Origin: Patescibacteria group bacterium
Lineage (GTDB): Bacteria; Patescibacteriota; UBA1384; XYA2-FULL-43-10; 1-14-0-10-43-13
Reading direction: 5' to 3'
NCBI GenBank assembly: GCA_038078835.1
Contig: JBBTQI010000003.1
Coordinates: 2,196-66,195, forward strand
DNA: 64,000 bases
Positions 13,014 through 50,574 of this stretch are shown here, one piece after another (the first letter of the stretch is position 1; each line of letters begins with the position of its first letter). A program made the position numbers and the translations under genes. The notes beneath the pieces were generated by a model. It saw nothing but the letters and a program-made list of their open reading frames with translations, had not been told where the DNA came from and did not search any database.

Positions 13014-13032
13014 TAGAGGGGACGGTTCTCTT

Positions 13033-18491: not shown

Positions 18492-18608
18492 AAATGGATG
18501 ACTAATTGGTCTAAATAACAAATGACGAATATTCATATCCCCTCTATCTCCCTCCCGCATCGAGTACGGGACAGGCTCTACCTTAGGGGGAGAACCATTG
18601 GTTGTTCG

Positions 18609-19261: not shown

Positions 19262-20170
19262 ATGATAACTATGCAAGAATTCTTTCAGTCTCTGGTAATC
19301 GGCGCCATCCAGGGCATCACCGAATTTCTGCCGATCTCCTCGTCGGGGCACCTGGTCTTGGTCCCTTATCTTTTTGGTTGGGACTATCAGGGTCTCTCAT
19401 TTGATGTCGCCCTTCATTTTGGCACCGCCCTTGCTGTTATTGCCTACTTCCGGCGGGACTGGATAAAGATCATCGCTAAAGGCCTAAGGCTGAAGGCTGA
19501 AGGCAATAGCAATTTGGCCTCCGGCCTTAGGCCTCCGGCCTTAGGCTTTTCCGCTTCCAGCCCTAGGCCTCCGGCCTTAGGCAAAAATTTGCTGTGGCAA
19601 ATTTTAATCGCTTCCATTCCGGCGGCGATTGCCGGCATCTTGATCAACGACTATGTTGAATCAACTCTCCACTCTCCTCTCTTGCTCGCCGCTAACCTGA
19701 TTATCTTTGGCTGGCTTCTCTGGTATGCCGACAAACGAGCTGCCTTCGGCCTTTGGCCTTCGGCCTTCGCCCATTCGATTTCCACTCAGGGCGATCTGAG
19801 TCTATCGAAGATCGGCCTTCGGCACGCCTTGTTTATTGGTCTGGCTCAATCTCTTGCCCTGGTCCCCGGCGTCTCCCGCTCCGGCATCACCATCACCGCC
19901 GCTCGCAGCCTCGGCCTGAATCGGGAAGCGGCAACCCGCTTCTCCTTTCTCCTCGGTACTCCGGCGATTGTCGGCGCCTTTCTCTATAAATTCAAGGATA
20001 TCGATATTGCCCTAATTAACCTTCCCTTTATTGTTGCCACACTGGCGGCAATGGTCTTTGGTTTTCTTGCGATCAAGTATTTGCTACAATATTTAAGAAA
20101 GAGCGATTTCTCCGTTTTTTTGTGGTATCGAGTCGCACTAGCCATAATCGTGCTCTTCGGAGGGAAATGA
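19262..20170 (+). CDS. uppP: Undecaprenyl-diphosphatase UppP/BacA, carrying in-frame repeat insertions
   Basis: N-terminus LVIGAIQGITEFLPISSSGHL, and a C-terminal GVSRSGITITAA motif. Family-2 repeat insertions at 19478-19582 and 19742-19772 encode LRLKAEGNSNLASGLRPPALG and FAHSISTQGDLSLSKIGL. Both peptides also occur in xerD and tsaD. Confidence 0.85.
   Translation: MITMQEFFQSLVIGAIQGITEFLPISSSGHLVLVPYLFGWDYQGLSFDVALHFGTALAVIAYFRRDWIKIIAKGLRLKAEGNSNLASGLRPPALGFSASSPRPPALGKNLLWQILIASIPAAIAGILINDYVESTLHSPLLLAANLIIFGWLLWYADKRAAFGLWPSAFAHSISTQGDLSLSKIGLRHALFIGLAQSLALVPGVSRSGITITAARSLGLNREAATRFSFLLGTPAIVGAFLYKFKDIDIALINLPFIVATLAAMVFGFLAIKYLLQYLRKSDFSVFLWYRVALAIIVLFGGK
19478..19582. repeat. GC-rich palindromic element, family 2, inside uppP
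   Basis: aggcctaaggctgaaggctgaaggc...ggcctccggccttaggcctccggccttaggc. Confidence 0.6.
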
Positions 20171-27740: not shown

Positions 27741-27986
27741 GGGGCGGCATTGCGGAGCGAAATACGTCCTCTCGCCAAAACCAAACGTCCGGATTTTTTG
27801 GCGCTTCTGCTCAAGTGCCCGAGGGCAATACCTGAACTTAAATTGTAGCAACTAACGATAGCCGGACAGAAACCCTACTGTCAAGAGCGAGTAAGCACAA
27901 ATCAACGAGGCCGCCGGTATCAACACCGTCACGTCAAAATGAACCCATAGACATCACATCCGGAAAACGCACTAAAACTATCATTA

Positions 27987-28036
27987 CCCTCACCCTAAAC
28001 CCTCTCCCTTTCGGGGAGAGGGAATAAGAGGGAGTG
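27987..28036. repeat. REP-like palindromic element, family 1, intergenic copy
   Basis: ccctcaccctaaaccctctccctttcggggagagggaataagagggagtg. Confidence 0.6.
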
Positions 28037-28128: not shown

Positions 28129-28749
28129 ATGAAATACAATCAGCTCAGATTACAGATAAACAAGCCTTATTTCACGCTGGACGATCTGCGCTTGCGGGGA
28201 CTCAAGGTTTACAGCTACCAATTTTCTCTTTGGCAAAAAAGGGGATATATTAAACAGCTCAAGCGCGGCACATATGTCTTTGCGGACAAAGAGGACGAAC
28301 TAGCACCCCCCGAGATCTCCTTTCTTCTCTATCAGCCGAGCTATCTGAGCTTAGAAACAGCGCTAAACCATTATGGGCTGATTCCCGAGATCGTTCAGGC
28401 TCAAACCGCCGTCACCGCCAAAATCAATCGCCGCTTTAAAAACTCTTACGGTTCTTTTATTTATCGGCACTTGAAACCCTCTCTTTTTTTCGGCTACACC
28501 CCCGCGCAGACAAAATACGGAAAATATTTGCTGGCCGAACCGGAAAAGGCCCTGCTTGATTATCTGTATCTAAATTTGGGAAAAATAAATACCCAAAATG
28601 ATATCGAAAACTTGCGCCTGAATTGCCAAATCCTGCGAGAAATCATCACCAAAGGGAAACTTGACCGCTATCTTAAAATATTTGATAGCCGGAAACTCAA
28701 TCGAACAATTAACCAACTCTTAAGGCAATGCTCACCTACGAACAGCTGA
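28129..28749 (+). CDS. AbiEi-family antitoxin / transcriptional regulator (type IV TA system, abortive infection)
   Basis: N-terminal FTLDDLRLRGLKVYSYQFSLWQKRGYIKQLKRGTYVF (AbiEi_4-like wHTH). Overlaps the downstream toxin gene. Confidence 0.7.
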   Translation: MKYNQLRLQINKPYFTLDDLRLRGLKVYSYQFSLWQKRGYIKQLKRGTYVFADKEDELAPPEISFLLYQPSYLSLETALNHYGLIPEIVQAQTAVTAKINRRFKNSYGSFIYRHLKPSLFFGYTPAQTKYGKYLLAEPEKALLDYLYLNLGKINTQNDIENLRLNCQILREIITKGKLDRYLKIFDSRKLNRTINQLLRQCSPTNS

Positions 28750-29504
28750 AAAAATATTATTCCGATGGTCTAGCCGCTAAAATGCCGAAAAATATTTTAG
28801 TGGAGTATCTTCAGTATGAACTTCTTGACTCCCTCTTTAAACAAAAGAGGAGCGAGTTGCTGGTATTTATCGGCGGGACAGCAATCCGAATAATTTATGG
28901 CAGCAGCCGGTTTTCCGAGGATTTGGATTTTGACAACTTTGGCCTGCCGTTTGATGAATTTGAAGAAATTGTGGACAATGCGGGAAAAGATTTAGAGTTA
29001 AAGGGGTTCTCTGCTGAATTGCGCTTTGTCGAGAAGGGCGCCTACCACTGCTATTTAAAATTCCCGGAAATCCTCTATGACAACAACCTCTCCAGCTTGC
29101 TTCAGGAAAAAGTGCTCATTCGCCTTGATACAGTTAATAAAGAGCCCTCTTATCGGCCGGTTATTCATACTCTCAACAAATTTGATGTCTTTCGCAATAT
29201 TTTGGCGGCGCCGGCAGATATTATATTGGCCCAAAAACTGATCACGATTATGGAGCGCAAAAGGGAGAAGGGGCGGGATTTTTACGATGCCAGCTTTCTC
29301 CTTGGTCTGACTAAACCTGATTTTCTCTACATCAAAAAGACGACCGGACTAGCCCAGGATGAATTTGGGGGGAAATTTTTGGAACGTTTGAATCAGCTTG
29401 ATTTCAACTTTTTGGCCAAGGATGTGGAACCGTTTCTGGCCGCCCCGGAACAGTCGGAGCGGATTAAAAACTTTAAAGACTTTGTCGTCCCCCGCCTCCG
29501 CTAA
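28728..29504 (+). CDS. AbiEii/AbiGii-family nucleotidyltransferase toxin (DUF1814)
   Basis: LVFIGGTAIRIIYGSSRFSEDLDFDNF signature of the AbiEii nucleotidyltransferase fold. Confidence 0.75.
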   Translation: MLTYEQLKKYYSDGLAAKMPKNILVEYLQYELLDSLFKQKRSELLVFIGGTAIRIIYGSSRFSEDLDFDNFGLPFDEFEEIVDNAGKDLELKGFSAELRFVEKGAYHCYLKFPEILYDNNLSSLLQEKVLIRLDTVNKEPSYRPVIHTLNKFDVFRNILAAPADIILAQKLITIMERKREKGRDFYDASFLLGLTKPDFLYIKKTTGLAQDEFGGKFLERLNQLDFNFLAKDVEPFLAAPEQSERIKNFKDFVVPRLR

Positions 29505-29580: not shown

Positions 29581-29976
29581 ATGCGCTATAAGGTACCGCA
29601 AAATATTGATATGCAGGACCGGATTTTAGGACCACTAACAATGGTCCAGTTTCTCTATGCCATCATTGGCGGCGGCCTCTGCTACTCCATCTTTATGACC
29701 GTCCCTCGGCCACTCTCTTATGTTTTTGTTGTGCCGCTCGCCCTTTTTACCTTTGCCCTAAGCTTTCTTAAGGTGAACGAGCGGCCATTCTTGGACTTCT
29801 TTCTAGCCGCCATCAACTACTATTCAACCCCCAAAAAGCGGATCTGGCACCACCATGCTGCCGATAACCTCAGTGTCACGATCTTTGAAGCGAAAGCAAA
29901 GAAGAGCGAGGTGCAAACTAAACATATTTCTCACGAGAAGATTGAAGAACTGGCCGGCAAATTAGACCAAACATAA
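29581..29976 (+). CDS. PrgI-family protein (VirB3-like T4SS inner-membrane component)
   Basis: MRYKVPQNIDMQDRILGPLTMVQFLYAIIGGGLCYSIF... then a second TM helix; matches the PrgI family N-terminal pattern. Confidence 0.65.
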   Translation: MRYKVPQNIDMQDRILGPLTMVQFLYAIIGGGLCYSIFMTVPRPLSYVFVVPLALFTFALSFLKVNERPFLDFFLAAINYYSTPKKRIWHHHAADNLSVTIFEAKAKKSEVQTKHISHEKIEELAGKLDQT

Positions 29977-30130: not shown

Positions 30131-31189
30131 ATGTCCCAATTTTCAACTCAACAATCAATCGACATTGCCGGGATTAAGGAGGGTGTCGTCATCCTCAAGA
30201 ATGGCGGCTACCGCCTGATCTTTTCGGTGGCGGCAATTAACTTTGCCCTAAAGAGCGAGCAGGAACAGAACTCGATTATTTTCCAGTACCAAAGCTTTTT
30301 AAACTCCCTTCACTTCCCCATTCAGATCGTGATGAGATCCAAGCGTTTAGACCTCGACCCGTATTTGCAAAAAGTCTCCAAGCTGGCCGGAGATCAGCAA
30401 AACGAGTTATTGCGAATTCAAACTGAGGATTACGTCGACTTTGTCGGCAAACTCATCAATATCGCCAACATTATGAAAAAGACCTTCTACGCCGTCATCC
30501 CCTACCAGCCCCTCTCTCTCCAAAACACGGGCGCTCTGGGCAAACTGTTCCGGCGAGAAAAAACGGTGACAGAGCTTAAGATCTCTGAAACGGAGTTCAA
30601 TCATAATATCCAGGAGCTTAAACAGCGCGCCGGCGTTGTCGCCAGCGGCCTGGGCTCGATGGGCCTGCGCTGTGTTCAGCTCTCAACCGAGGAGGTCATT
30701 GAGCTCTTTTATCAAGTCTACAACCCCGAAGAAGCCGGAACGGAGAGAGTCAGCGATGCCGAGAGCCTGACCTCGCCCGTTGTCATTCACAAAAGCGAAG
30801 CGCCCGAAGAAGCCGGAGGTCAAAGGCCGGAAGGTGAAGGCGATAATACGGCCGAGAGCCTAAGGCCGAAGGCCGAAGGGGGTCAAGCTGAAGGCGAAAG
30901 GCCGGAGGCTGAAAGCCAAAGAGAAGAGGTAATTGACAATTCGGCCTCGGTACTGGCGCAACAAAAAGAACAAGCTATGCTCCACCGCCAGGAGATGATG
31001 AAGGAGGGAGAGCGCAATATAGCCCAAGGCCAAAGGCCGGAGGCTGAAGACGACAACACCCCCAATCCGCCACCGGCAACGCCCGAACCAATAACTCAAA
31101 CGCCGAATCAAACCACTACTCAAACAAATCAGCCCGACAACTCGAACCCCGAGGAACAGGATGAAACCCAACAGCACAAGCCCCAATAA
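30131..31189 (+). CDS. VirB4/TraC-family ATPase, N-terminal fragment (split gene) with a low-complexity repeat-derived tail
   Basis: DIAGIKEGVVILKNGGYRLIFSVAAINFALKSEQEQNSIIFQYQSFLNSLHFPIQIVMRS matches the VirB4 N-terminus of Gram-positive conjugation systems. The C-terminal ~130 aa (EAPEEAGGQRPEGEGDNTAESLRPKAEGGQAEGERPEAE...) are encoded by family-2 repeats at 30812-30918 and 31021-31048. Confidence 0.55.
   Translation: MSQFSTQQSIDIAGIKEGVVILKNGGYRLIFSVAAINFALKSEQEQNSIIFQYQSFLNSLHFPIQIVMRSKRLDLDPYLQKVSKLAGDQQNELLRIQTEDYVDFVGKLINIANIMKKTFYAVIPYQPLSLQNTGALGKLFRREKTVTELKISETEFNHNIQELKQRAGVVASGLGSMGLRCVQLSTEEVIELFYQVYNPEEAGTERVSDAESLTSPVVIHKSEAPEEAGGQRPEGEGDNTAESLRPKAEGGQAEGERPEAESQREEVIDNSASVLAQQKEQAMLHRQEMMKEGERNIAQGQRPEAEDDNTPNPPPATPEPITQTPNQTTTQTNQPDNSNPEEQDETQQHKPQ
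30812..30918. repeat. GC-rich palindromic element, family 2, inside the virB4 N-terminal fragment
   Basis: ggaggtcaaaggccggaaggtgaaggc...gcctaaggccgaaggccgaaggg...gaaaggccggaggctgaaagcc. Confidence 0.55.
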
Positions 31190-31592
31190 AGGCTCCCTCC
31201 AATCCCCTCTCCTCCGAGAGGAGAGGGTGAGGGTGAGGAGAAAATTAAGAGTTAACTCAACTCCAGCTGAACAGATAATCTGGCACAAAATAAGATCAAG
31301 ACAATTAAACAACCTGAAGTTTCGGCGGCAACATCACTTTGGAAAATATATCGCCGATTTCTATTGCCCAGAGAAGAAATTGGTAATCGAGATCGATGGT
31401 GATGTTCATGATTTAGAATGTCAGAGAGAGCACGATAAAAAAAGAGGCCATTATTTAACGAGCTTAGGTTTGCGTGTCTTACACATTACCAATGATGAAG
31501 TGAGAAATAATCTTACAGGAGTACTAGAAAGCATCTTGCTGCAACCCCATCCCTCACCCCAACCCTCTCCCTTAAAAAGGGGGAGGGAGTAA
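31161..31592 (+). CDS. DUF559-family endonuclease-domain protein (Vsr/restriction-endonuclease-like fold) inserted between the two virB4 halves
   Basis: RKLRVNSTPAEQIIWHKIRSRQLNNLKFRRQHHFGKYIADFYCPEKKLVIEIDGDVHD...LGLRVLHITNDEV matches the DUF559 consensus. It is flanked by family-1 palindromes at 31194-31228 and 31551-31592. A likely alternative GTG start lies near 31231. Confidence 0.65.
   Translation: MKPNSTSPNKGSLQSPLLREERVRVRRKLRVNSTPAEQIIWHKIRSRQLNNLKFRRQHHFGKYIADFYCPEKKLVIEIDGDVHDLECQREHDKKRGHYLTSLGLRVLHITNDEVRNNLTGVLESILLQPHPSPQPSPLKRGRE
31194..31228. repeat. REP-like palindromic element, family 1, left flank of the DUF559 cassette
   Basis: tcccctctcctccgagaggagagggtgagggtgagg. Confidence 0.6.
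31551..31592. repeat. REP-like palindromic element, family 1, right flank of the DUF559 cassette
   Basis: tccctcaccccaaccctctcccttaaaaagggggagggag; encodes the DUF559 C-terminal tail HPSPQPSPLKRGRE. Confidence 0.6.
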
Positions 31593-31602
31593 TAAGGTTT
31601 AT

Positions 31603-33441
31603 ATGGCAAATCCAGCTGATCAAAATATGACCGCCTCTCCGGATGCGCGAACGATTGCCCAAAGCAATGTCGAGGCGAGAGAAAAAGCATCCAAACTCGC
31701 CTTTTGGAAACAGAACGGCGAGGATTTCTCGCGGGGCGCAACCTCCGTCCGCGATATCATCGCGCCGGCCGCCTTTGTTGTGAACTCAAACTACCTTCAG
31801 ATCGGTCCGCACTATGCCCGCACCCTCTTTGTCTTTACCTATCCCCGCTACCTCGAAACCAACTGGCTCTCGCCCATTATTAATTACGATATTACCGTCG
31901 ATATGGGAATGTACATCCATCCGCTCGAGTCCAAGGATGTAATGCACCAGTTAAAGACCCAGGTCGGCAAACTTGAGTCGACGATGATGATCGAACAGGA
32001 GAAGGGCCAGCCGCGCGACCCGGAGATCGAAACGGCTCTCGGCGACGTTGAGGCCCTACGCGACGTCCTCCAGCGCGGCGAGGTCCGCCTCTTTCAGTTC
32101 GGGCTCTATTTTACACTCTACGCCAAGTCGCTCGAGGAGCTAAAAACCATGACTGAGCAGCTTGAATCTACCCTCGGCGGTCTCCTTATCTACACCAAAG
32201 AGTCGCTCTTTCAGATGGAGCAGGGTTTTACCGCCACCCTGCCCTTAATGCACGACAAACTGGAGATCCTGCGCAACCTTGACACCAGCTCTCTCTCCTC
32301 CACCTTCCCCTTCACCTCCTCTGAGCTGACCCAGGACGACGGCATCCTCTACGGCATCAACCGCCACAACAATTCGCTGATAATATTCGACCGGTTTCAT
32401 CTTGAGAATGCCAACAGCGTCGTCTTTGCCAAATCCGGTTCGGGTAAATCTTACTTTGTCAAGCTTGAAGCCCTGCGTTACCTGATGCTTGGCACCGATA
32501 TCATCATCGTCGACCCGGAGAAGGAGTACAAAACGCTCTGCGATGCCATCGGCGGCAGTTACCTTGACATCTCTCTTAACTCTGATAAACGGATAAACCC
32601 CTTTGATCTGCCCCTGAATCCCAAAGCGGAGGCCAATGAGACGGGCGAGGATGTCCTCCGCTCCAACATCGCCTCCCTTCACGGCCTGATTAATCTGATG
32701 GGCGGCGGCCTCTCGCCGGAGGAAGACGCGATCGTCGACAAGGCGCTCTACGAAACCTATGCCCTAAAGGATATTACCGCCGACCCGGAGAGCCAGAAGA
32801 ACGAACCGCCTCTGCTTCAGGATTTCTACAACGTTCTGGGCAATATGCAGGGCACCGACTCTCTCCGCGCCAAGCTCTCCAAATACACCGAGGGCTCCTT
32901 TGCCTCCCTCTACAACCAGCCGACCAACTTTGAATTGAAGCCCGGTATGGTCGTCTTCTCTGTGCGCGATCTGGAGGAACAGCTCCGTCCCCTGGCGATG
33001 TATATGATCTTAAACTATATCTGGACCAAGATCCGCCAAAATATGCGGCGGCGGATTATGATTATCGATGAAGCCTGGTGGATGATGCAGTTTGAAGATT
33101 CGGCCAAATTCCTTCACGGCCTGGCTAAGCGGGGCCGGAAGTATTACCTGGGCCTGACGATTATCAGCCAGGATGTCGAGGACTTTCTGGGTTCGCGCTA
33201 CGGCAAGGCGGTGGTGGCCAACTCCTCGATGCAGATCCTGATGAAACAGTCCACGGCGTCGATTGACGTTGTCGCCGATGTCTTTAACCTGACCGAGGGG
33301 GAAAAGTACCTCCTGCTCGAATCTGACGTCGGCGAGGGGCTCTTCTTTGCCGGCCTGAATCACGTCGCCGTCAAAGTCGTCGCCTCTTACGCCGAGGATC
33401 AGATCATCACCACCGATCCGAAGCAATTACTCGGAGAGTAA
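31603..33441 (+). CDS. virB4: VirB4/TraC/CagE-family T4SS ATPase, C-terminal (ATPase) portion
   Basis: Walker A VVFAKSGSGKSYF, Walker B-like RIMIIDEAWWMM, and a mid-region DIIAPAAFVVNSNYLQIGPHYARTLFVFTYPRYLETNWLSP typical of VirB4. Confidence 0.8.
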   Translation: MANPADQNMTASPDARTIAQSNVEAREKASKLAFWKQNGEDFSRGATSVRDIIAPAAFVVNSNYLQIGPHYARTLFVFTYPRYLETNWLSPIINYDITVDMGMYIHPLESKDVMHQLKTQVGKLESTMMIEQEKGQPRDPEIETALGDVEALRDVLQRGEVRLFQFGLYFTLYAKSLEELKTMTEQLESTLGGLLIYTKESLFQMEQGFTATLPLMHDKLEILRNLDTSSLSSTFPFTSSELTQDDGILYGINRHNNSLIIFDRFHLENANSVVFAKSGSGKSYFVKLEALRYLMLGTDIIIVDPEKEYKTLCDAIGGSYLDISLNSDKRINPFDLPLNPKAEANETGEDVLRSNIASLHGLINLMGGGLSPEEDAIVDKALYETYALKDITADPESQKNEPPLLQDFYNVLGNMQGTDSLRAKLSKYTEGSFASLYNQPTNFELKPGMVVFSVRDLEEQLRPLAMYMILNYIWTKIRQNMRRRIMIIDEAWWMMQFEDSAKFLHGLAKRGRKYYLGLTIISQDVEDFLGSRYGKAVVANSSMQILMKQSTASIDVVADVFNLTEGEKYLLLESDVGEGLFFAGLNHVAVKVVASYAEDQIITTDPKQLLGE

Positions 33442-33497: not shown

Positions 33498-34748
33498 ATG
33501 TCTGAAAAACCAAACCAAAATCCTGTCGAGCCGAATCAAACAGTTGAGAACACAACTGAAGTTAAAAACACCGGTCTTTCCATAAAGACAATTTTGATAG
33601 TGGCTATCTGCTCATTCCTGCTCCTCTTTGGCGGCGGAGCCGCCATCGCCGTCCCCCTCGCCTTCCTCGGTCTCGTCGATCCCGGCGAACCCTCACCGCT
33701 TGCGGCAAAGATTTTCGGAAGTAGTGGAGATAATAGTTGCTGGCTATCAGATGATGCATTTAAAGACACAACTACTATCACGGAGGCTGATCAAATAGCA
33801 CGACTGATGGGTAACGACAGGAGACTATCGAATCCCCCAGAACAAAAAGATCGACTTAAAGTGATCATTGATGAGTCGAGAAGAAAAGTGGTCAATGATA
33901 AACAAACCGGCATAAACCCTGCGATCTTGGTTTCTTTTTGGGCGGGAGAACAGGGTTTCAGTTATGATTCTAACGATAAATATGACCCCGATCGCGATAT
34001 GAAAGCTTTTGGTTGTAGTGTCACTGGACCAGGCGTTAACAGCTATCCGTCATTTGAAGGACAAGTAAAATGTGTCCTAGATCAAGTTCAAAATGCAATC
34101 AACAAAGAGGGAAATTATAGGGAACCGGAAATTCCCGGTACCTGGGATCGTCTAATTTATCATTATATCGGCACAGAAGATCAGAAAGTTGCGCTAAAAA
34201 CTTATGGCCATGTCACCACCGCAAGTAATACCAGGATCAAAATATTGAAGAAGCTCGTCCCCGACCAAGTCACCTGTGCGGCAATTCAAGGTGCAAGCAC
34301 ATCAAATAAAATCGTTGGTGCCGCCCGCGGGCAAGTCGGATACAAGACTCAGAAATCAGATTGTGCCATTTACAACGAAAAAACTATCGACGAGAGCCGG
34401 CAGTATCAATGGTGCGTCAGTTTTGTCTCCTGGGTCTATCGCAAAGCCGGGCATAATGTTCCTCTTATGGTCGGTACCGAAGAGATTATGAATTATTTTA
34501 AAAACGAGCAAACGTGGATCGAAAGAAAAGATATTAAATCAGCAAACGATATTAAGGCCGGAGATGTCTTAATTGAAACCAGCGCCTCGAGCAGCAGCGG
34601 CAAGCATGCCGGGATTATTGATATCGAAAACGGCCGCTATTTCACCATTGAGGGCAACACCTCAAAAGATATGGTCGAGCGTCGAGAGATCGGTGATATG
34701 AACGCTTTTGTCAGGAATCTTGTCGACCTCGGCCGGATAAAGGAGTAG
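33498..34748 (+). CDS. Membrane-anchored CHAP-domain peptidoglycan hydrolase (T4SS-associated lytic enzyme)
   Basis: N-terminal TM helix. The C-terminus has QWCVSFVSWVY (catalytic Cys) and GKHAGIIDIENGRYFTIEGNTS (catalytic His), consistent with CHAP. Confidence 0.6.
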   Translation: MSEKPNQNPVEPNQTVENTTEVKNTGLSIKTILIVAICSFLLLFGGGAAIAVPLAFLGLVDPGEPSPLAAKIFGSSGDNSCWLSDDAFKDTTTITEADQIARLMGNDRRLSNPPEQKDRLKVIIDESRRKVVNDKQTGINPAILVSFWAGEQGFSYDSNDKYDPDRDMKAFGCSVTGPGVNSYPSFEGQVKCVLDQVQNAINKEGNYREPEIPGTWDRLIYHYIGTEDQKVALKTYGHVTTASNTRIKILKKLVPDQVTCAAIQGASTSNKIVGAARGQVGYKTQKSDCAIYNEKTIDESRQYQWCVSFVSWVYRKAGHNVPLMVGTEEIMNYFKNEQTWIERKDIKSANDIKAGDVLIETSASSSSGKHAGIIDIENGRYFTIEGNTSKDMVERREIGDMNAFVRNLVDLGRIKE

Positions 34749-34749: not shown

Positions 34750-36018
34750 ATGAAAAATGATATTTATCAATATCTGAACGCGCGGATATATTTGGCGCTC
34801 TTTGTGATGGTCTCGGCTCTCTTTGGCCTCTACTGGTTTGCGACTCACTCCTACCTCACCATCAAGGTCACGCCGCCGGACGCTATGGTCACGATCAATA
34901 ACGCGCCGGTCTCGCTCTCCGCCGCCGGCAAAATAAAACGGGCTCTCGCGCCGGGCGCCTACTCGCTTCGGATTGAGGCTGACGGCTACGTCGGCTATAT
35001 CGAGGAGGTTGCCCTCAAACGAACTCAGCGCAAAACCGTCTCGGCCAGCCTCACGGAGGCGCCAAAGGTCCAGACTCTGGCGGAATCAGCGAAATTCCTC
35101 TCCGCCGGGCCGGACTTTAACACCATCCACTATCTGGGCGATGATGGCAGAACGCTCTACCGCGCCAAGACAACACTGGAAAACGGCGAGGTCAAACTCA
35201 AAGAGCACCTCCCGATAACCGAGCCGCGGTTCTCCGGCCTTGAGGAGATTGTCTGGTCGCCCGGCAAGGAGCTGGCTCTCCTGCGCAAGAGCGAGGGCAT
35301 CTATCTCTTCGATTTTAAAAAATACGATTTTATCAATCAAACCGAGACATTGTGGGCCAAGAGCGCCGGCAGTCTTGCCTGGTCGCCGGACAACTCCAAA
35401 ATCGCCTATTATTACGCCGACGACAAGGAGAAATCATTAATCTTTACTAATATTGCCAACACCGAACCGGTACGGGTGGCTAATCTGGCCGAGATGAATA
35501 TCGTCAATCCGATTCTGCGCTGGTCGCCGGACTCCGAATGGCTCCTTGTCATACCTCGTAATACTTTTTCATACGATTTAAGCAAAGTTTATGCCTTTAA
35601 CGCCTACAGTCGCTCCTTTATCGAACTGACGGAAACGGGCAGCCAGCTTGACGCCAGCTTCTCGCCGGACGGCAACAGAATCATCTACGGCACGTATTCG
35701 GAGCTCTCCAGCAATCCCGTCACTTCTCTAATATCGATTATGGATAAAGACGGCGCAAACAAACGCTCGCTTAATTTACGCGCCGATATCAGCCGGATGG
35801 CCTGGAAAAAAGACAGTAAAACCTTAGTCGCGGCGACTTATAATCCCTCAAGTCACAAAGAGTCGCTCTTTGGCTTTGACACCGAGAAGAAGCAGAAGAT
35901 TGATTTCTCCGTTAATGCTCTTGATTCGGGTTACATCCGCACTCTGGCCATTTCTGACGACGAAAAGATCATCATTTTTGAGTCGGGGAACGGGATATAC
36001 GGCATCGCAATAGAGTAA
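34750..36018 (+). CDS. Membrane-anchored PEGA-domain plus TolB-like beta-propeller protein
   Basis: TM helix, a PEGA-like LTIKVTPPDAMVTINNAPV...GAYSLRIEADGYV, then repeated WSPD / FSPDG motifs (WSPDNSKIAYY, RWSPDSEWLLV, FSPDGNRIIYG). Confidence 0.5.
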   Translation: MKNDIYQYLNARIYLALFVMVSALFGLYWFATHSYLTIKVTPPDAMVTINNAPVSLSAAGKIKRALAPGAYSLRIEADGYVGYIEEVALKRTQRKTVSASLTEAPKVQTLAESAKFLSAGPDFNTIHYLGDDGRTLYRAKTTLENGEVKLKEHLPITEPRFSGLEEIVWSPGKELALLRKSEGIYLFDFKKYDFINQTETLWAKSAGSLAWSPDNSKIAYYYADDKEKSLIFTNIANTEPVRVANLAEMNIVNPILRWSPDSEWLLVIPRNTFSYDLSKVYAFNAYSRSFIELTETGSQLDASFSPDGNRIIYGTYSELSSNPVTSLISIMDKDGANKRSLNLRADISRMAWKKDSKTLVAATYNPSSHKESLFGFDTEKKQKIDFSVNALDSGYIRTLAISDDEKIIIFESGNGIYGIAIE

Positions 36019-36245
36019 ATCTCAAACAACAAGCACCAAATATCAAATAATTTCCAAATCACAAACCTCAAATAACAAATAAATTCCAGATTGCAATTAC
36101 CAGCTACAAAAGCGTTTGAAAATTAGAGATTGGGACTTGGAACTTATCTAAGATTTGTTATTTGGGATTTAAATTTTACTTGTGGTTTGGTGCTTGGTAT
36201 TTGAGGTTTCTCCGCTTTGGCGGAGAGGAGGGGTTTTGGCAACCG
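36019..36245. repeat. ~220 bp AT-rich MITE-like inverted-repeat element, copy 1
   Basis: ...caagcaccaaatatcaaataatttccaaatcacaaacctcaa...ttacttgtggtttggtgcttggtatttgaggtttctccgctttggcggagaggagg. The arms are imperfect reverse complements. It ends in a small hairpin plus GGAGAGGAGG. Confidence 0.5.
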
Positions 36246-37672
36246 GTCGGCAAAATCGGGAGGAGTACGAGGCCTTAAGGCGCAACCTTAAGGCGGCAAT
36301 CGGGCGGCGGAGTCCGACCGTTTATAGCATTGCCCAAAAGATGAACTCCTTGGGCGTCTCCGACCCCGAGCTGGGACCGATCATTGAAGCCCTCGCTTCC
36401 CGCCAATTCAGCGCTATGGCCGAAGCCCAGCGCCATTTTGGCGTGAAAACACCATCAAACCGCCCTGATTCGGCCAGACCATCGGAATCGCCAGGGAGCG
36501 GAACTGAAACCGGCACTCCCTTTGAAAATGCCGGCGAGGGCATCAAGGCCAAGAAACCGAGTGATATCGGCCGGATCGGACAGGTCGCTAAAAATATCAG
36601 AGACCTGCAAAAGCGAGCTCAAAACTACCTTCGCGCCCTCAAGGCGGCCGGCATTTTGGCCAATCCCTGGACATGGGTGGTGATCGGCATTGCGATTTTA
36701 ATTATCCTAATTATTCTCTTTGTCGTCATTCTCTCGATTGTTTTGAACAAAAACCAGATGACGCCCCATCCCGGCGGCAAATCCCAAGCCCAGGCCGCCG
36801 ACCCCATCGCCGACCGCGAATTTGTCCGGAAATTACTGGCTCTAACCGGAGACCAAGATATTAAAAACGAGGCGATCGCCGGCAACAATAAAAAACTGCT
36901 AACCCAAATCGACGACCTCATTACCGAGATCAGAAAGCCGGAAAACGCCGACCTTCCCGATCGCGACCAAATTAAAAAGGACTATCTCGCCATCAGGGAT
37001 ATCGCTCAAAATATCAGCCCCAGCAATTCCAATAATGCCGCTCTCTACGACCAGGTTATCGCCAAGCTTAAAGAAACAAGAAAATATCTCTCCGCTCCCC
37101 TCGCCGCCTACCCCGGCCCTTCGACCTTGCCGCTAAATTTGCCTCGGGATCAAATTAGAACCGGGAATAGCCTTCACCATTGCACCCGCTGGCGGCCAGA
37201 TCACTGTTTTAAAGGCTCTGGTCACGGCACCTTTGTAATGAACAGTAGCAAGCGCTCCGATGCCGTTGATCTCTCACCCACTACAAAACCTGTCCACGAT
37301 GTCAAAATCATCGCCGTTTTCGACGGCACTATTAAAGATAAAGAGCATGGCGGTGTAGACACCAAGAAAGAGTATTTTTATCTCACCGATACAACTGGCC
37401 AATATAAGGCGGTTTATGCCCACGTTAAGCTCAATGATGGTACAAAAAATGTTAAGAAGGGCGATGAAATCGGCTATATTCTCGACAGTATCGGCCATCT
37501 TCACTTTGAGCTTTACCAAATTACAAAGATCGGTTTGAGGCCATTAAATTATACCGAGGAAGATATTAAAGCTTGCGGCCTGGATAAAAATCCGCTCACT
37601 CCCAACTGCCCCAACGGCCGCCGCATCGGTGATTATTATTGGGATTACCTTACTTTGATTTTGCAGAAATGA
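36182..37672 (+). CDS. M23-family (LytM-like) metallopeptidase with an N-terminal TM helix; start uncertain
   Basis: C-terminal HCTRWRPDHCF...GDEIGYILDSIGHLHFELYQ (M23 HxxxD / HLH motifs). TM helix WTWVVIGIAILIILIILFVV. The listed ATG lies inside the MITE-like element; the real start is probably downstream (for example Met ~36344). Confidence 0.65.
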   Translation: MVWCLVFEVSPLWRRGGVLATGRQNREEYEALRRNLKAAIGRRSPTVYSIAQKMNSLGVSDPELGPIIEALASRQFSAMAEAQRHFGVKTPSNRPDSARPSESPGSGTETGTPFENAGEGIKAKKPSDIGRIGQVAKNIRDLQKRAQNYLRALKAAGILANPWTWVVIGIAILIILIILFVVILSIVLNKNQMTPHPGGKSQAQAADPIADREFVRKLLALTGDQDIKNEAIAGNNKKLLTQIDDLITEIRKPENADLPDRDQIKKDYLAIRDIAQNISPSNSNNAALYDQVIAKLKETRKYLSAPLAAYPGPSTLPLNLPRDQIRTGNSLHHCTRWRPDHCFKGSGHGTFVMNSSKRSDAVDLSPTTKPVHDVKIIAVFDGTIKDKEHGGVDTKKEYFYLTDTTGQYKAVYAHVKLNDGTKNVKKGDEIGYILDSIGHLHFELYQITKIGLRPLNYTEEDIKACGLDKNPLTPNCPNGRRIGDYYWDYLTLILQK

Positions 37673-40600
37673 AAGCGGTTTTCCAAAAATCTATCTGTAT
37701 TCTTCTGGTAATCGGGTCGCTTTTAATTCAAGTGGCGCCGATTCTGTCGTTTCCAACAAAAGTTAGAGCCCAAGAAGACATCGCCAATGAAACAACCAAT
37801 CTTAATGTGGAAACGGTCGGACCAGATGGTGAAATCTATGGTGATGTCCCGCCAGAAGTTAAGGCGTACGAAGAAACTAACTCCATCTATGATCAGATGG
37901 AGAAGCTTTACGACTTTGCCGAGGAAGCCAATTTCCGCGACGATGATCCCACCCGCCTCTCGCCAAGCGATCTCTTTGGCACGAGCGATGCAAGGATAAT
38001 TCTGCGGCAGTCGGATTATCTCAAGGTCAAAGCCCTTTACTGCATCTCGGAGTCGGTCGGGGGGTATCCCGACTACGAGAATGATCTGGCGCTTTTAGCT
38101 AAGGATTCGGGGCGAGACGAGGGCAAGCTCACCGAACTCAAAAACAGCCTGGCTGTGGCTGATCGGGTCGAGTTCAGACGAATTATGCGGGGCACCCTGG
38201 TCAAGTGGGGTGAGAGTTACGATATTAAAGCGAAACTCAAGGATGAGGCAAATCTCCGGACACTTGAGTGCATCACCGGCCTCTCCGGCAACGCGCTGGC
38301 CGAGCTTCGCGCCAGCCAAAAGGAGAAACTGGATCCGATTATCGACGATGCCGTGGAGGGATTGAAGATCGACATTAGAATTATAAAGACCCTCGTTTAT
38401 CTTGTCACACCAAAAGAGAAGGGTGGAGCGGGGCATTATCGTATTCGAGTCCACCGCATCTTTCAGATCAAAGAGCTCTCGACCGAATCCGATGCCATCC
38501 TCGGCCGCAACTTAAAACAGCAAAAGGACGGCACGGCCGCCGATATCGGCCAGGCCGAACGGGAAGGCGCCGATGCCACAATTGAGGATGCCTCCGGCAA
38601 CGCTGTCGCCGATGCCTATCTCGAAGAGATAACGCAAGAAGAGGACAAGGTTGAGGCCAACCGCTCCGCCCACGCCGACGGCCAGGCGGTTGATATTTCC
38701 GAGATTGACGACATTCGCTGCACCGTTGTCGGCCGGCGACGAGTAGGACAAGACAAAGTCGAGAACAAACCGGCCCAGCCCGTCCGACTGTCTTGGCAAA
38801 CCAATGATGGCTACAGCGCCTCCGGCGGCAACAACGCCTATGATCTTATGGAGCTGATGCGGGAAAGCGCCAAGGAAAGCCTGCGCGAGCTGGCCAATGG
38901 TCTCGGCGGCGACATCACCGATTACGAGGGCGACCTCTCCAGGGCCAACCTCGAGGACTTAACCACCCTGATCGGCAAATCGCTCTTTGCCGAGATCATT
39001 AACTCTCCCGGCGCTTTTCTTTCGGGCTACGATGTCGGCGACACGATGGAGAAGCTGGGGTCGATGTATCTGGCCGATTACCTCGGTCTCCCGCGCGAAG
39101 TCTTTGCCGGGCGCGGCATCGAGAGCTTTGACGACATCTCCGTCCTGGTCGGCGAGGCTTCGATTGAAAAGAAGCTGAATCAGCCGATCGGCCTGCTCGA
39201 GCCGATTATGGAGCCCTCGCCTGGAAATAGTCTCTCCGATCTTGAATTTTGGCTGCGCCAGATCGGCCGGCGCAAGATCGCTCTGGAGATGAATTTAAAC
39301 CTAAACGACCTCGTCGATTACTCCGGTGATAAGCCGATATCTCTTCTGGTGGGTCAAAAGGCGATCGAGAAGGGTATTGATCTTCCCCCCGGCTCCTTCA
39401 ATTATCACAGCGCCAGCTTTAACGAGCTCAAAAGTCATATCGGCACGATTAAGGTCCAAGTCATTCAAACCGACCCCGCCTGGGTCGATCGGACGCTTCA
39501 CATTCCTCTCGGTTCAACCAAGAAATTATTGGACAACAAGGATAGCGAGGAGGCTCTGGCCGAATTCATCGCTTTGGTCGGAACCACCCGGATTGAAGAC
39601 ACGGTCAGAGGATTTAAATACCTTGCCGCTCACAGCAGTGCGTACAACCTGCCGGATGACGACTGGGAGAGAGCGGTCAACGGCGACCCTGACGGCCTAA
39701 CTCAGATCGGCATCTTTATGGCCGCCCGCGCTTTTGCCGAGGATAATGACGACTACCAGCGTCTGGCCATCCAGCAATGGATTAATGATGCGGTGAGCGG
39801 CTCTGATAACGGCGCTTGCGTCAATAATCCTTACATTAAAAAGAACGTTGAGATTGCCAAAGCCGAACCCCAGTTGGTTCTGACCGAGAGCGGACAATTT
39901 AAGGAGATCACCATCTCCGAGGACAGCGCCCGCAAGGCCGGTCTGGCCGAGGGCGATCTCTGCCAGATGTTCGGACAGAAGGCCGCCGCCGCCTATGATA
40001 TCTTTGAGCGCATCGGCGAGCGCTATCTCTACTATGCTTTTGTCAACGCTGTCGCCAACGAAGAGAGAGTCAAGGTCGATTTGATGCAGGATCCCGCTTA
40101 CCATATCACCAACACCGAAGTTCTCTTCTACACCACCCGGGTTGAAAAAGCTCAGACGCTCTCCAAGAAGATCAAAAAAGATTGGGAAACGCTCAAGAAA
40201 GACGAGCGCCTAAAAGATGATCCCGAACTGATGAGCGCGCTTGACGAGATCATCGCCGCCTCGGCTGATATCTCCTCCACCCAAACCAATATATCCGGCA
40301 TCAGAGATAAGTCGCGGCAGCTAACCGCCAAGAGCAGCCGGATCAGCGCCCGGCTTCGGCAAAAGAGAGCCGAACTCTCCGATCTCTCCGACCACATTAA
40401 CGCGCTGGTTCGGGACACCCGGGAGCTCTATCGAACAGTGATGGAGTTAATCGAGGGCCAGCCGATTCCGGCCGCCTCGCTCCTGGAGGCCAACCAGATT
40501 AAAACGACCGATTTAAGCCGGCGCGAGAACGGCCGCAACAATAGTAATGTCAAAGTTACGACCGCGCCGACGCTGGTCGCCGCTTTTCTCAAGGGCCGGA

Positions 40601-43600
40601 TCAAGCCGGCACAATTCTTCAAGAAGCTGGCGATATCCAAAGTCGAATCCGAACTCAACCTCCCCAAAAATTCCGTCACCTATTACGTCCAAAACTGGGA
40701 GATCAAAGGGGTCGAGGGTAATAATATCGACGCTTTCTATCAGGCGATCGGCCAGGCCAAAATTGAGGAGAAGCTGGGTCTGCCGGAATTTTATTTCCAG
40801 GGACCGATCTATAAAGATGTTAAGGATTACAGCCAAATTGCCTGCAATGCCATCCAAGACGGCGACAATTGGCAGCTGGCGGTGGATGAACGCTCCGATA
40901 AGCTGTACGGCGAACTTCAAAATTTCTATCGAGAATCGAACAAAACAATCAAAGTTCCAGGAAGCGGCGACAATATCAACATCGACAACGAGAATCAGGT
41001 TTGCGATCTCCTCCTTCGAGCCAAGAGCGGCACGGCCGTCCGCCACCGGGAAGCCAAGCAGGTCTGGCGCGAGATTGAACGGGCCGCTATCTCGATCTTT
41101 CGGCGAGAGCAGAATGAAAAGAACAAAAATACCGACAGCACTATGACCGATGTCGCCAGGAATGTCGATTATCAGAAACTCGCCGACGGCATCAGGGGCG
41201 GCAACAATGATGTTATGCTCCGCTTCGGTCTGGCCGGCAGCCTGGAAGCCGCTTTTAATCAACTTTATTGGTCAGCTAATCCGGGCAGCCGGCAGCGCGC
41301 CGAGAAAATTGATCGTGATCTGGGCATTACCGCCGCCGGCAAAAGTCGATCCACCAACACCCAGGCTCTCTTTACCGGCGAAACTCTTCTCTGGCGCGAC
41401 GGCCAGGATATGCTGACGGAGACGGAGAAAAATTCTCTTGCCGAGAGCGGACTCACCCTCACGCAAACCCTCTCCGGCACAGAGGAATATGCGCGTAAAA
41501 TCGCTCTGTCGGAGGATGTTTTAAACCGTTATCTTCAGGTCCTAAACAACGAGATCGACCTAAACGGTTTTAAGAACTACAAACAGCATCCCGTCTCTTA
41601 TAATTCGACCAATCGCTACCAAAAGGACAGAAGAACCAATGACGACGCCGAGAAGAGCTGCAAGATAACCTACACCAAAAAGGATGGCTTTGAGGTGGCG
41701 GAAAACTCGATTCAGGATGACGCCTATGTCTATGTTGACGCCCAAGGCAAGCCCTACTCCTTCCGCAATAAGGAGGCGGCGGCGGCCTTTATTAAGGGAC
41801 AGGGATTTGAGGAGCAATATTATATCTCGCTCTTAGCTCAATACCTCTATGATCTCGGCCAATATATTCAATCCGAATATGGTCCCTTTAGCCAGGAGTA
41901 CCGCGAGCGTTTCTCGTCGACTGCCCGCGTTCAGGACGCCCTGGAACGCTTCTTGCAGCAGGCGGACATTGACCTCCTGCCCTTTGCGGAAATTATCGAT
42001 AAAGCGGAGGCAAAAAATCATCAATTCACGCCGGAAAACCAGATCCTCTTCGGCAACACTTCTCTCTCTACTCTGCGCAAACTCTTCGGCCAACCTCTCC
42101 TGGCCGACAAACCCCTTCAGCGCTACCGCCATATTGTCGGCTCGGCCGAAGCTAAAAGGATATTGACCGCCACACTCCTGCGCAACGTTGGCATTACAAT
42201 CAATCCCGAAGATTTCGGACCGGAGGATTTCCTGGCCATTCTCTCCGGCGACTACCGCCCCCTCACCCGTCTGGGAGCAACCTTAATCGACAAAAGCATG
42301 GATCTTCCCCAGGGCTCAACCCGGGCGCTCTTTGCCATTCAGTCGCTGGACGATATCACCTGCGTTTTGAGTGATATCGGCGCTCAACGCCTGGGCAAGC
42401 TGGTCGGCCTGAAACGCCTGCCCCTAAACGGCGAGATCGGCGCGCACTATCTCTCCCAGCTCTATCACAATATGGGCCAGGCCAAGATCGAGGAAACTCT
42501 GGGTCTCCCCTACGGCAGTTTCCGCGGCCAGGCTCTCTCAACTTATCCGGGCAGTCCGGGCCTCATCGAGAACATTGGGCACCTTAACTTTGCCCTGGCT
42601 TTTGAAATCCCCCTTGAGGGCGTAATTGAAGGTTCAAATGAGACTATCGCCAGCGCCGCCCTCCAGGTTATCGGCGAGATAATGGGCCAGGCCGCGGTTG
42701 AGAAGTATCGGAAAGCCTCAACAACCAATCTCTTAAAGCTCATTCGCGACAATCTGGCTTACACTACCAGCCGCAAGATCAATTCATTAGAATCTCTCGA
42801 TCGGACAATATATTACCGGGTTTCCGAACTAGTCAAAGCCGATGACAAAAACGGCAAGTTCTGGCAGGGCGATCTTAAAAAAGAAACGGAGGACTTCTTT
42901 GCCCGCCTGCGCTATCTCGACGGCGTCTTTGAGCTTGATTCCCTCTCGGCCGACAGTCGAACCTTCGCCCTCTTTAACGGCAAAATTAAGCCCGACGCTT
43001 ACGCCGAGCGGGTGGCGGCGATGATGGCCCGGCGCTTAACCGCAACCTCATTGGCTAACGCCTTCGGTATTGACGAGGAGGACGCTAAGGACGCTAAGGC
43101 CGCCTATGAGATTATCCGCAACTGGAACAATATCTTTCACTGCTATGATAAAGACTTCAATTCATACTCCGGTCCCATGGGGCTTGACGATGCCTGCGCC
43201 GGCTGGAACCAGAACTGGGGCAAGCTCTATGACGGCTTAAGTAAAATTGTCGATGTCGATCTGGATGACCGGGCCGGCTTGTCGGACGGCAGTATGCGGG
43301 CGATGATCAACAATCCCGAGATCGCCCCCCAGATTCTTCTGGCCAACGGCGCCGCCGATCTGGATGAGAAGTGGGAGCTTGACACACCCTCTGCCGCCGA
43401 TATAACCGGCGCCGTCATTGGCGCTCTCGGCGGGAGTGGTATTGCCGACATTAAAGACGGCACCTTTGCCACCGCCTATACTTCAGCCCTGAATTGGCAG
43501 GCTTATAAAAACTTTACTCCGGCCGAGCGGGCCAACCTGAGCAATGTCCGGAGTTTTTGCGCCAAAAACTACGCCGATCCCGACTTAAATTTGCTGACCG

Positions 43601-47347: not shown

Positions 47348-47386
47348 AAGTCTTATATGACCTATAAGACATATGGGTCTTATGGA

Positions 47387-48493: not shown

Positions 48494-48793
48494 CACAATA
48501 CCTTTCGCTAATATTTTCCTGTGGATAACTCCCTGATTTATCCGCAACCCTGTGGATAACTTATGAAAAACTCGTCGCCTGTAAGGGCGCCGGTTTAAGC
48601 CGGTATATTCTTATCCCCGACACCGGGTATTAATCCACATCTTTTCCCCCACCTTTGTCCAGAACTTATCCCCAACCTCCTCCTTTGTTTTTGATATTTG
48701 ATATCTGATATTTGATATTTATCCACTTATCCACAAGCCTTACTATTACTACTATTAAGTATTTATTATCTTTTCAATAAAACAGGGGATAAG
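48494..48793. other. Chromosomal replication origin (oriC) between dnaA and dnaN, with DnaA boxes and an AT-rich unwinding element
   Basis: TGTGGATAA at 48520-48528 and 48551-48559, TTATCCGCA near 48538, TTATCCAC/TTATCCACA at 48719-48735, plus AT-rich (tgatattt)n repeats at ~48690-48725. A further TTATCCACA lies upstream of dnaA at 50228-50236. Confidence 0.7.
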
Positions 48794-50182: not shown

Positions 50183-50401
50183 AGCTGGAAAATCCCTTAA
50201 AAAAATAGACAACTCAAATATAGCAAGTTATCCACAGGGTACGTCAATAGAGCGTTGGGCAAGGCATCCATCGTCGCTAAAGTGACTTCTCCTACAAAAT
50301 TACAAATTTTACAAATACTATGGTGAACAGGTTCGAATCAATTTGTAATATTTGTAGTTTCGAAAGATTTGTAATTTTGTAGGATATTTAGGTGTATTGT
50401 G

Positions 50402-50430
50402 TTGACTTTAGTTTTAAGATAAGCTAAACT
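50402..50430 (+). promoter_or_regulatory. Putative sigma70 promoter TTGACT-N17-TAAACT for rpmH (short or leaderless 5' UTR)
   Basis: ttgact at 50402-50407 and taaact at 50425-50430; the ATG is at 50440 with no obvious SD. Confidence 0.35.
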
Positions 50431-50439
50431 ATCTCTGTT

Positions 50440-50574
50440 ATGAAGAGAACATTTCAACCAAACAGACAGCGCCGGGCCAAGAAACACGGCTTTTTAAAAC
50501 GTATGGCCACTCTTAGCGGTCGTCTTGTTATTAAGCGTCGCCGCAACAAGGGCAGATCAAAATTGACAGCATAA
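50440..50574 (+). CDS. rpmH: 50S ribosomal protein L34
   Basis: [44 protein letters not shown] (44 aa). It is below the ORF-track size cutoff and was translated by hand. Confidence 0.9.

Follow-up and report, generated by a model that had tools for sequence, protein, structure and literature searches.

We analyzed a 64,000-nucleotide stretch of DNA, which we call the window, from a Patescibacteria genome (GenBank assembly GCA_038078835.1, contig JBBTQI010000003.1, positions 2,196 to 66,195 of the forward strand). Near its middle, two open reading frames (ORFs) that resemble successive parts of the ATPase VirB4 lie on either side of a small gene for a DUF559 protein. The locus is a chromosomal type IV secretion system (T4SS) cluster, beside dnaA, in a genome of the Patescibacteria (the candidate phyla radiation, or CPR). 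An earlier reading of the window (the sequence-only reading) proposed that virB4 had recently been disrupted by a DUF559 cassette and gave two alternatives: a functional VirB4 in two pieces, or a selfish insertion similar to a homing endonuclease. Our analysis does not bear out the disruption and supports both of the alternatives. We are confident that VirB4 is natively made as two polypeptides in this lineage, that a DUF559 cassette of about 390–400 bp was inserted into the spacer between the two genes (trsD and virB4), and that the cassette is a member of a widespread class of DUF559 genes that are flanked by hairpins.

All three of the ORFs that were described for the locus are present (Table 1). 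The operon context fits VirB4, with PrgI, a CHAP-domain hydrolase, and a TrbL_3 domain on a 944-amino-acid ORF (from precomputed annotation), so the VirB6/TrbL context is present as well. The order of these genes matches that of two relatives (loci L001 and L003). prgI is found at the equivalent position in four relatives (L001, L003, L147, and L145), and the CHAP hydrolase gene is at the matching position in L003. Because recF, dnaN, and dnaA (all on the minus strand) and yidC (on the plus strand) lie at 46304-52285 of the window, the T4SS cluster adjoins the region of the replication origin. Such a location near the origin is common in Patescibacteria (PMC12102498). The gap between trsD and virB4 is 413 nt in the window and is filled by the DUF559 gene and two hairpin units.

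Table 1. Features of the trsD–virB4 region, in coordinates of the window (SD, Shine-Dalgarno; aa, amino acids)
Feature	Position	Strand	Description
prgI (VirB3-like)	29581..29976	+	Pfam PrgI, E 6.8e-12; heads the conserved prgI-trsD-virB4 run
trsD-like gene (ORF1)	30131..31189	+	VirB4 N-terminal-domain protein (aa 1-~220) and C-terminal tail (aa ~221-352)
Three family-2 (GGCCGRAGG-type) repeat copies, in frame	30811-30849, 30886-30924, 31021-31059	+	In the variable parts of the tail
Conserved 36-aa motif	30923..31030	+	EEVIDNSASVLAQQKEQAMLHRQEMMKEGERNIAQG (EEVIDNSA...MMKEGER); TrsD tail, aa 265-300
DUF559 ORF, longest form	31161-31592	+	143 aa; PF04480
Left terminal hairpin unit (family-1, reversed)	31193..31240	-	Perfect 10-bp stem at 31205-31227, then GGGTGAGGGTGAGG
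DUF559 (Vsr-like PD-(D/E)XK) nuclease gene, predicted	31233..31592	+	Likely start GTG 31233 (or 31227), after SD-like GGAGAGG
Right terminal hairpin unit	31551..31591	+	CCCTCACCCCAACCC, then stem-loop at 31563-31587; holds the DUF559 stop codon
Remaining virB4 leader	31592..31602	+	TAATAAGGTTTAT, with SD-like AAGG before ATG 31603
virB4 ATPase gene (ORF3)	31603..33441	+	612 aa; middle and C-terminal ATPase domains
CHAP-domain cell-wall hydrolase (VirB1-like role)	33498..34748	+	Pfam CHAP; next gene of the conserved cluster

The trsD and virB4 genes

The protein from ORF3 matches the C-terminal domain of Thermoanaerobacter VirB4 (4AG5, E 3e-48) and TrwK from R388 (E 8.5e-7). It also scores 367.8 bits against the NCBIfam model for CD1110-family VirB4 (NF045971; cut-off 325), but it spans only positions 177-732 of the 752 in that profile, so that positions 1-176 are absent from it. 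With a Walker A motif (SGSGKS) at residue 278 and a Walker B motif (IIDEAW) at residue 487, ORF3 is the middle region of VirB4 together with its ATPase motifs, as had been described.

ORF1 (352 amino acids) resembles the missing part, and its earlier identification as a VirB4 N-terminus holds up. Its residues 7-84 align to positions 2-82 of the CD1110 profile. Its first 84 to 123 residues resemble the N-terminal parts of VirB4 profiles and a TrsD/TraD model (positions 109-233 of the VirB4_plasma profile and 18-95 of the TrsD profile). Since ORF1 scores just 30.4 bits against the NCBIfam TrsD model (NF041427), which is below the cut-off of 200, it is better named TrsD-like, or TraC-like after Pfam PF26593, which is assigned to it in precomputed annotation; a scan of the window's proteins with a local copy of Pfam gave no match for ORF1. 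The predicted structure of its first 223 residues (pLDDT 72.8) also points to VirB4: the 14 best matches in the PDB are all TrwK or VirB4 chains (E values from 8e-4, TM scores of 0.36-0.43).

How the two proteins relate to a single VirB4 can be seen from a fused homologue of 898 amino acids (P0342). ORF1 aligns to its residues 13-235 (34% identity over residues 13-285, E 3e-48), ORF3 aligns to its residues 323-890 (60% identity), and a low-complexity linker separates the two parts. By these alignments, ORF1 and ORF3 are collinear with one VirB4 and together cover it without overlap, which argues for the two-piece VirB4 that had been listed as an alternative.

The fused form is rare. A search with the N-terminal domain of ORF1 returned 2,675 homologues, and the best 120 of these are all from Patescibacteria and are 284-383 amino acids long. 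We also ran an exhaustive HMMER search of 1.84 billion cluster representatives (50% clustering). Among the 150 representatives listed, which extend down to 36% identity, 149 are stand-alone N-domain proteins of 97-478 amino acids, and P0342 is the only fused form. The gene for P0342, with its TraC-like and VirB4 parts, is found in five contigs (e.g., at 4001-6697 of L145 and 1431-4127 of L146), where it overlaps prgI by 4 nt. It could be either a secondary fusion or the ancestral state.

In four relatives, the TraC-like (TrsD) gene is followed directly by virB4, without a DUF559 gene. The gap between the genes is 14 nt in L001, 17 nt in L003, 59 nt in L147 (a Berkelbacteria relative), and 33 nt in L148, which has a tail-less TrsD of 225 amino acids; the first three also have prgI upstream of the pair. 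In L001 and L003 (73% and 67% identity), the TraC-like gene encodes 332 or 352 amino acids and virB4 encodes 611 or 613. Over its residues 1-612, VirB4 from the window aligns with residues 1-613 of its counterpart in L003 (80% identity; 82% for L001), and the TrsD of the window aligns to its orthologue from residue 1. Judging from these alignments, both genes are full length for their lineage and nothing is truncated.

A TrsD and VirB4 pair was described for Patescibacteria in 2025 (PMC12102498), so the two-gene VirB4 is already known and is not new here. That study reports 2,272 TrsD homologues in Patescibacteria, with 1,664 of them adjoining VirB4, and one TrsD homologue is listed as essential in Ca. 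Southlakia epibionticum ML1 (PMC12102498). The window resembles the TrsD and TrsE/VirB4 proteins of MPF_FATA systems of the pGO1 type, and the T4SS of Patescibacteria (PMC12102498), in having a small homologue of the VirB4 N-terminal domain upstream of a VirB4 that lacks this domain. The surroundings are similar as well (prgI/VirB3, VirB6/TrbL, a cell-wall hydrolase, and a cluster near oriC). Unlike these systems, the window has a gap with a foreign gene between the pair, and its TrsD-like protein falls far under the TrsD cut-off and has a tail of about 130 amino acids.

That tail had been described as a low-complexity stretch made from family-2 repeats. Three in-frame copies are indeed present, and they belong to two repeat families that were found by repeat search (D6 and D12). 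However, the tail is not purely low-complexity, as it also contains a conserved motif of 36 amino acids. The 11 closest orthologues all carry the motif in their tails, and it is flanked by variable acidic stretches and stretches rich in P, T, and Q. Across 264 homologues, the median tail length is 111 amino acids, and the tail of ORF1 corresponds to the linker of the fused P0342. These comparisons identify the tail as a native linker or tail of the family rather than debris from a disruption.

If a single ancestral virB4 had recently been cut by the DUF559 cassette, then ORF1 would be an N-terminal piece that was cut short and ends in a junk tail. The collinearity of both ORFs with a full-length VirB4, with the cassette exactly between them, is what this history would produce. 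But the gene pairs of equal length in relatives without the cassette, the predominance of stand-alone N-domain proteins, the full-length genes of the window, the conserved motif in the tail, and the published TrsD and VirB4 arrangement all speak against it. The claim of a disruption fails because relatives lack DUF559 between the two genes and because each half is independently conserved, and we give it only a minute chance of being correct. It is also extremely unlikely that a chimeric join induced by repeats put the cassette between the genes during assembly. The genome is repeat-rich and comes from a metagenome assembly, which would favor such an artefact, but the 560 nt that span both cassette junctions are base-for-base the same in three independent assemblies (two Logan runs that were assembled separately and one assembly from ENA), and nine contigs carry the locus. 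Overall, we conclude from the alignments that VirB4 is natively made as two polypeptides here: a TrsD-like N-domain protein, whose tail is partly disordered, and a VirB4 of 612 amino acids. For the T4SS, this removes a false lead, as the window holds an ordinary, intact Patescibacteria pair and not a broken or newly split virB4.

The DUF559 cassette and its terminal hairpins

The gene between trsD and virB4 encodes a protein with the DUF559 endonuclease fold, as the sequence-only reading had it (PF04480: E 9e-32, 109.6 bits versus a cut-off of 20.6), and has a weaker match to the MTES_1575 restriction endonuclease family. DUF559 is among the oldest domains of unknown function, and YcjD from E. 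coli is a member. The GTG codon at 31233 is in frame and lies 6 nt past the Shine-Dalgarno-like sequence, and from this start the protein has about 119 amino acids in total. The longer form that begins at ATG 31161 and overlaps trsD is probably an over-extension by ORF calling, because the domain begins at about residue 25 of that form and because of the GTG at 31233.

All 13 residues that are invariant among 32 homologues are present in the DUF559 protein of the window. These include D66, E77, D79, H83, and D92, so the core of acidic and histidine residues appears to be intact, and we predict that the protein is a nuclease. The family profile matches the structure of a DUF559 protein from N. 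gonorrhoeae (3HRL, E 2e-34) and gives a weak match to I-Bth0305I, a homing endonuclease that is Vsr-like (3R3P, E 1e-4). There are also weak matches to the PADLOC HEase family and to homing endonuclease families in PHROG. Because PADLOC gave weak matches to nuclease domains alone, the gene is not part of a recognised defence system.

Palindromic units bracket the gene, as had been reported. The left unit folds as DNA with -14 kcal/mol (z -2.85), and the right unit is 96% identical over 26 nt to a gene-less unit at 12625 of the window. The two units are inverted relative to each other. The terminal inverted repeats are imperfect units of about 40 nt whose outermost 8 bp are CTCCCTCC and GGAGGGAG. 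Outside them, the cassette is flanked by AATAAAGG (left) and AATAAGG (right), and similar TAARGG sequences also follow gene-less units.

The closest homologue of the DUF559 protein (P0122, at locus L088) is 74% identical over the aligned 119 codons, and its cassette sits downstream of an unrelated gene that encodes a membrane-anchored protein. Similarity between the two loci at the DNA level extends from the left hairpin as far as GGGAGTA, just beyond the right one. With these limits, the cassette forms a discrete element about 390 bp long. The left ends of the two cassettes are identical at 33 of 36 nt, with two of the three differences in the loop, and the flanking units are about 92% identical overall. 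Within the gene, pN is 0.17 and pS is 0.86, so that synonymous sites are saturated. Given this ratio and the similarity of the units, we infer that the gene is under purifying selection and that its non-coding ends are even more constrained.

The cassette was inserted into the trsD–virB4 spacer, which is usually 14-59 nt long, and left both reading frames untouched. The trsD stop codon and the virB4 leader with its AAGG are preserved, and the leader that remains (TAATAAGGTTTAT) resembles the entire 14-nt spacer of L001 (TAATTTAAGGTAAGCATATG). The cassette is co-directional with the operon, and virB4 retains its own ribosome-binding site and start codon. A terminator scan found no terminator-like site and no T-run at either hairpin. 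Between 27500 and 34000, Rfam gave two chance-level matches (at E ≤ 1) and no family for the hairpins. Because the genes are intact, the insert is co-directional and has no terminator signature, and virB4 has its own ribosome-binding site, we expect that the T4SS is still functional. With the cassette in a spacer and its closest relative in an unrelated locus, the alternative of a selfish insertion is supported, and we consider the cassette to be a real, intact selfish insertion.

Hairpin-flanked DUF559 genes in other genomes

Homologues of the DUF559 protein at about 45-55% identity are found in the Patescibacteria, Cyanobacteria, Bacteroidota, Chloroflexota, Nitrospirota, Planctomycetota, Acidobacteriota, Desulfobacterota, and Proteobacteria. 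Many of the predicted proteins run into tails that are encoded by the hairpins (e.g., PSPxPSPLKRGxE). For a statistical comparison, we took the 80 genome loci that matched best, which span more than 10 phyla and were retrieved by the DUF559 gene alone; positions in the same loci served as controls. With regular expressions and hairpin scripts, we scored perfect stems (8 bp or longer) that lay no more than 130 nt from the conserved core. A stem was present on at least one side at 71% of the DUF559 loci versus 11% of the control positions, and on both sides at 46% versus 0%. Similarly, the inverted-repeat score between the two flanks was at least 15 for 45% of the loci and 0% of the controls (Mann-Whitney p ~1e-25). 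At two loci (L029 and L049), the inverted units are near-perfect and about 38 nt long. By these sequence comparisons, the association of hairpins with DUF559 is statistically strong across phyla.

The flanking hairpins have features in common. In 83% of them, the arms are homopurine/homopyrimidine, and the tail motif CCTCACC is 10-fold enriched in the DUF559 flanks. The exact motif points outward at nine loci and inward at four. (When the flanks were sorted into tail-in and tail-out by where a copy of a third arm lies, the outcome was scattered, and we do not rely on it.) The similarity of the hairpin arms is weakly correlated with that of the proteins (Mantel r 0.18, p 5e-4), and cognate hairpins are more common elsewhere in the same 6-kb loci than non-cognate ones are (0.056 versus 0.013 per kb, p 0.02).

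The units also occur without the gene. In the window, gene-less units are at five further sites: two inverted doublets (4523-4600 and 12618-12711) and three other units (11868, 17361, and 27980). The inverted doublet at 12618-12711 folds as one long hairpin (-31 kcal/mol, z -6.2). When metagenome contigs were scanned for the exact left unit, with 33 bases specified, 58 copies turned up. Only 10 of these copies have a DUF559 homologue within 150 nt, and the homologues near a unit are only 40-65% identical to the protein in the window. The hairpin unit is thus both commoner than the gene and better conserved.

We found no account of hairpin-flanked DUF559 cassettes in the literature, of which our coverage is incomplete, so this absence is not proof; the class may be new. 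The sole hint is a report that DUF559 genes are enriched among the genes that lie between invertible inverted repeats (PMC9881135).

Several known systems share part of this anatomy. Like REPtrons and REPINs, in which repetitive extragenic palindromes (REPs) are paired with REP-associated tyrosine transposases (RAYTs), the cassette has one small nuclease-type gene between inverted hairpin repeats, there are gene-less singlets and inverted doublets, and hairpins far outnumber genes (in the 64 kb surveyed). In contrast to RAYTs, which are Y1 HUH transposases, the protein in the window is a predicted Vsr-like PD-(D/E)XK nuclease. The stems in the window are homopurine/homopyrimidine, which also differs from REP/RAYT systems, and some units lie in frame inside genes. 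Classical REPs are species-specific, whereas near-identical hairpins of the DUF559 type are found across phyla. The Vsr-like homing endonucleases (EDxHD family, I-Bth0305I) have a related catalytic fold, and they too are small selfish genes with a patchy spread across phyla that do not destroy host genes. Unlike them, the cassette is free-standing, intergenic, and outside any intron or intein; its small protein lacks a large DNA-binding domain; the gene is bounded by inverted hairpins; and DUF559 genes are at unrelated sites instead of in one conserved target gene. Finally, MITEs (miniature transposable elements that have inverted repeats) with their autonomous insertion sequence (IS) partners and the Rickettsia palindromic elements (RPEs) also consist of short palindromic units with inverted ends. 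Here the coding version is about 390 bp and the non-coding versions are about 40-95 bp. As with RPEs, units are tolerated in frame within essential genes (mnmA and tsaD). Unlike MITE/IS pairs, the cassette has no recognisable transposase family, and DUF559 is the only protein that it encodes. To our knowledge, no enzyme has been linked to RPEs. The cassette thus lacks at least one defining feature of each of the RAYT, IS, and classical homing endonuclease families.

We tentatively propose that this DUF559 subfamily is the enzyme of unrecognised miniature mobile elements that cross phyla, or in other words a functional analogue of REP/RAYT that is built on a PD-(D/E)XK nuclease. We hold this to be quite possible, though somewhat short of probable. 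The elements may comprise homopurine/homopyrimidine hairpin units as singlets, inverted doublets, and gene-carrying cassettes of about 390 bp. As the likeliest mechanism, the DUF559 nuclease would recognise cognate hairpin units and nick or cut the DNA there, and repair or strand transfer would then copy the cassette, or gene-less units, to new sites. By analogy, the scheme would resemble REP/RAYT or pairs of MITEs and autonomous elements, with a different enzyme. The hairpin units may be benign enough to occupy in-frame sites in essential genes such as mnmA and tsaD, as well as essential operons in streamlined CPR genomes.

Several points weigh against this proposal or against our account of the insertion. 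Since the 80 loci are the best matches to the window's protein, the association holds only for this DUF559 subfamily. The correlation of arms with proteins and the excess of cognate hairpins in cis are significant but weak. Because most copies of the unit are not beside a DUF559 gene, another enzyme could mobilise them. There are two cassette polarities (tail-in and tail-out), and no single simple transposition model explains both. The exact ends of the cassette are uncertain, as is any target-site duplication (AATAAAGG/AATAAGG), and the 413-nt insert may have polar effects on the expression of virB4.

In the strongest competing idea, the units are repeats in their own right, mobile or REP-like, that are moved by some other enzyme, such as a Y1 transposase of the RAYT kind elsewhere in the genome. 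DUF559 would then be a free-standing gene of the homing type that lands at the units or at doublets of them, or that simply rides along between two units. The low share of exact units near a DUF559 gene and the divergence of the proteins at those that are would be expected under this idea. Gene-less doublets such as 12618-12711 look like an outward cassette minus its gene; the DUF559 profile is related to a homing endonuclease; and a relative (L147) carries a Y1_Tnp gene in its T4SS operon. On the other hand, we saw no Y1 transposase gene in the window, and the association of gene and hairpin extends over more than 10 phyla; hairpins that are conserved together with the gene are easier to explain if the DUF559 protein reads them. 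The anatomy itself does not separate the two readings, as both predict the same one. We consider independent repeats to be rather unlikely, though far from negligible. It is much less likely, and indeed improbable, that DUF559 is an accessory nuclease of the host or of the T4SS, with a role in repair or DNA processing, and that the hairpins are regulatory, terminator, or RNA-stability elements. Several features would suit an accessory gene: the gene lies within the operon and on its strand, it is intact and seems to be under purifying selection, and the hairpins have purine arms that are similar to Shine-Dalgarno sequences. But none of the relatives examined has DUF559 at this position, the closest homologue lies in unrelated surroundings, and the hairpins are not followed by a T-run. 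Furthermore, DUF559 genes in unrelated phyla and neighborhoods are flanked by the same hairpin sequence, and the 80 loci, whose neighbors were not annotated, suggest no preferential linkage to T4SS genes.

If DUF559 proteins do act on these units, then a new class of enzyme would join the few that are known to drive repeats of the REP or MITE type, and this would help to explain the repeat-laden genes with in-frame interruptions in some CPR genomes. The conserved hairpin flanks give a testable hypothesis, namely that the hairpin units are the DNA substrate of DUF559. We view the class of DUF559 cassettes and the in-frame palindromes elsewhere in the window as the parts worth following.

Other insertions and repeats

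Small selfish genes are found in other spacers of the T4SS operon. In the window, a complete AbiEi/AbiEii toxin-antitoxin (abortive-infection) pair at 28129-29504 (plus strand; PADLOC E 1e-58 and 5e-85) sits in the cluster between a gene for a 380-amino-acid protein and prgI; it is absent from L001 and L003. A family-1 hairpin unit (27980-28026) is just upstream of the pair. In the operon of L147, the Y1_Tnp (IS200/RAYT-like) gene lies before prgI (at 2313-2903 of that locus), and a 23S_rRNA_IVP gene lies between prgI and trsD (at 3574-3945). These are other small genes of a selfish type, and the spacers of the T4SS operon look like recurrent landing sites. An operon that is near the origin, and is reported to be essential in a related species, thus tolerates selfish inserts in its short spacers: DUF559 and AbiE here, and the Y1 transposase and 23S-IVP genes in the relative.

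Repeats of both families also interrupt genes elsewhere in the window. In mnmA (3764-5227, minus strand), the family-1 doublet at 4523-4600 is in frame. Against solved MnmA structures, the alignment jumps from residue 154 to 211 in the query and from 134 to 144 in the chain, which leaves an insert of about 47 amino acids that contains PHPNLLPEGEGTPSPGVTGEGRGE. This in-frame palindrome resembles the Rickettsia palindromic elements. The essential tRNA t6A enzyme TsaD (11550-13136, minus strand) is 487-528 amino acids long instead of the usual 340 or so. It aligns to TsaD from E. coli (4YDU) in four blocks, with inserts of about 55, 24, 44, and 15 amino acids, and each insert coincides with an in-frame repeat of family 1 (11868-11905 and 12618-12711) or family 2 (12016-12430). 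Family-2 repeats, which are of the GGCCGRAGG type with a 9-nt period, are also found on either strand in a FemAB-family ORF (14775-15719, plus strand), a XerC-like integrase (17364-18560, minus strand), and BacA/UppP (19262-20170, plus strand). The family-2 copies in the tail of TrsD belong to this genome-wide pattern of repeats within genes.

The window holds two further repeats. An AT-rich repeat of about 200 nt, with copies that are 86-91% identical (36017-36215, 54571-54773, and 63819-63874), is a long imperfect palindrome with arms of 81-87 nt and is located immediately upstream of the ORFs that start at 36182 and 54669. A third palindromic family of about 40 nt (CCACCTGGAAGGTG...CACCTTCCAGGTGG), which is unrelated to family 1, is present at 55629-55674, 56539-56584, and 60520-60561. 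Among the other genes of the window, a 2,773-amino-acid ORF without a Pfam match (37639-45960, plus strand) lies downstream of the T4SS cluster, a PilB-type ATPase is encoded at 52915-54564, and a 1,204-amino-acid ORF (56953-60567, minus strand) has a T4SS_pilin domain at its end.

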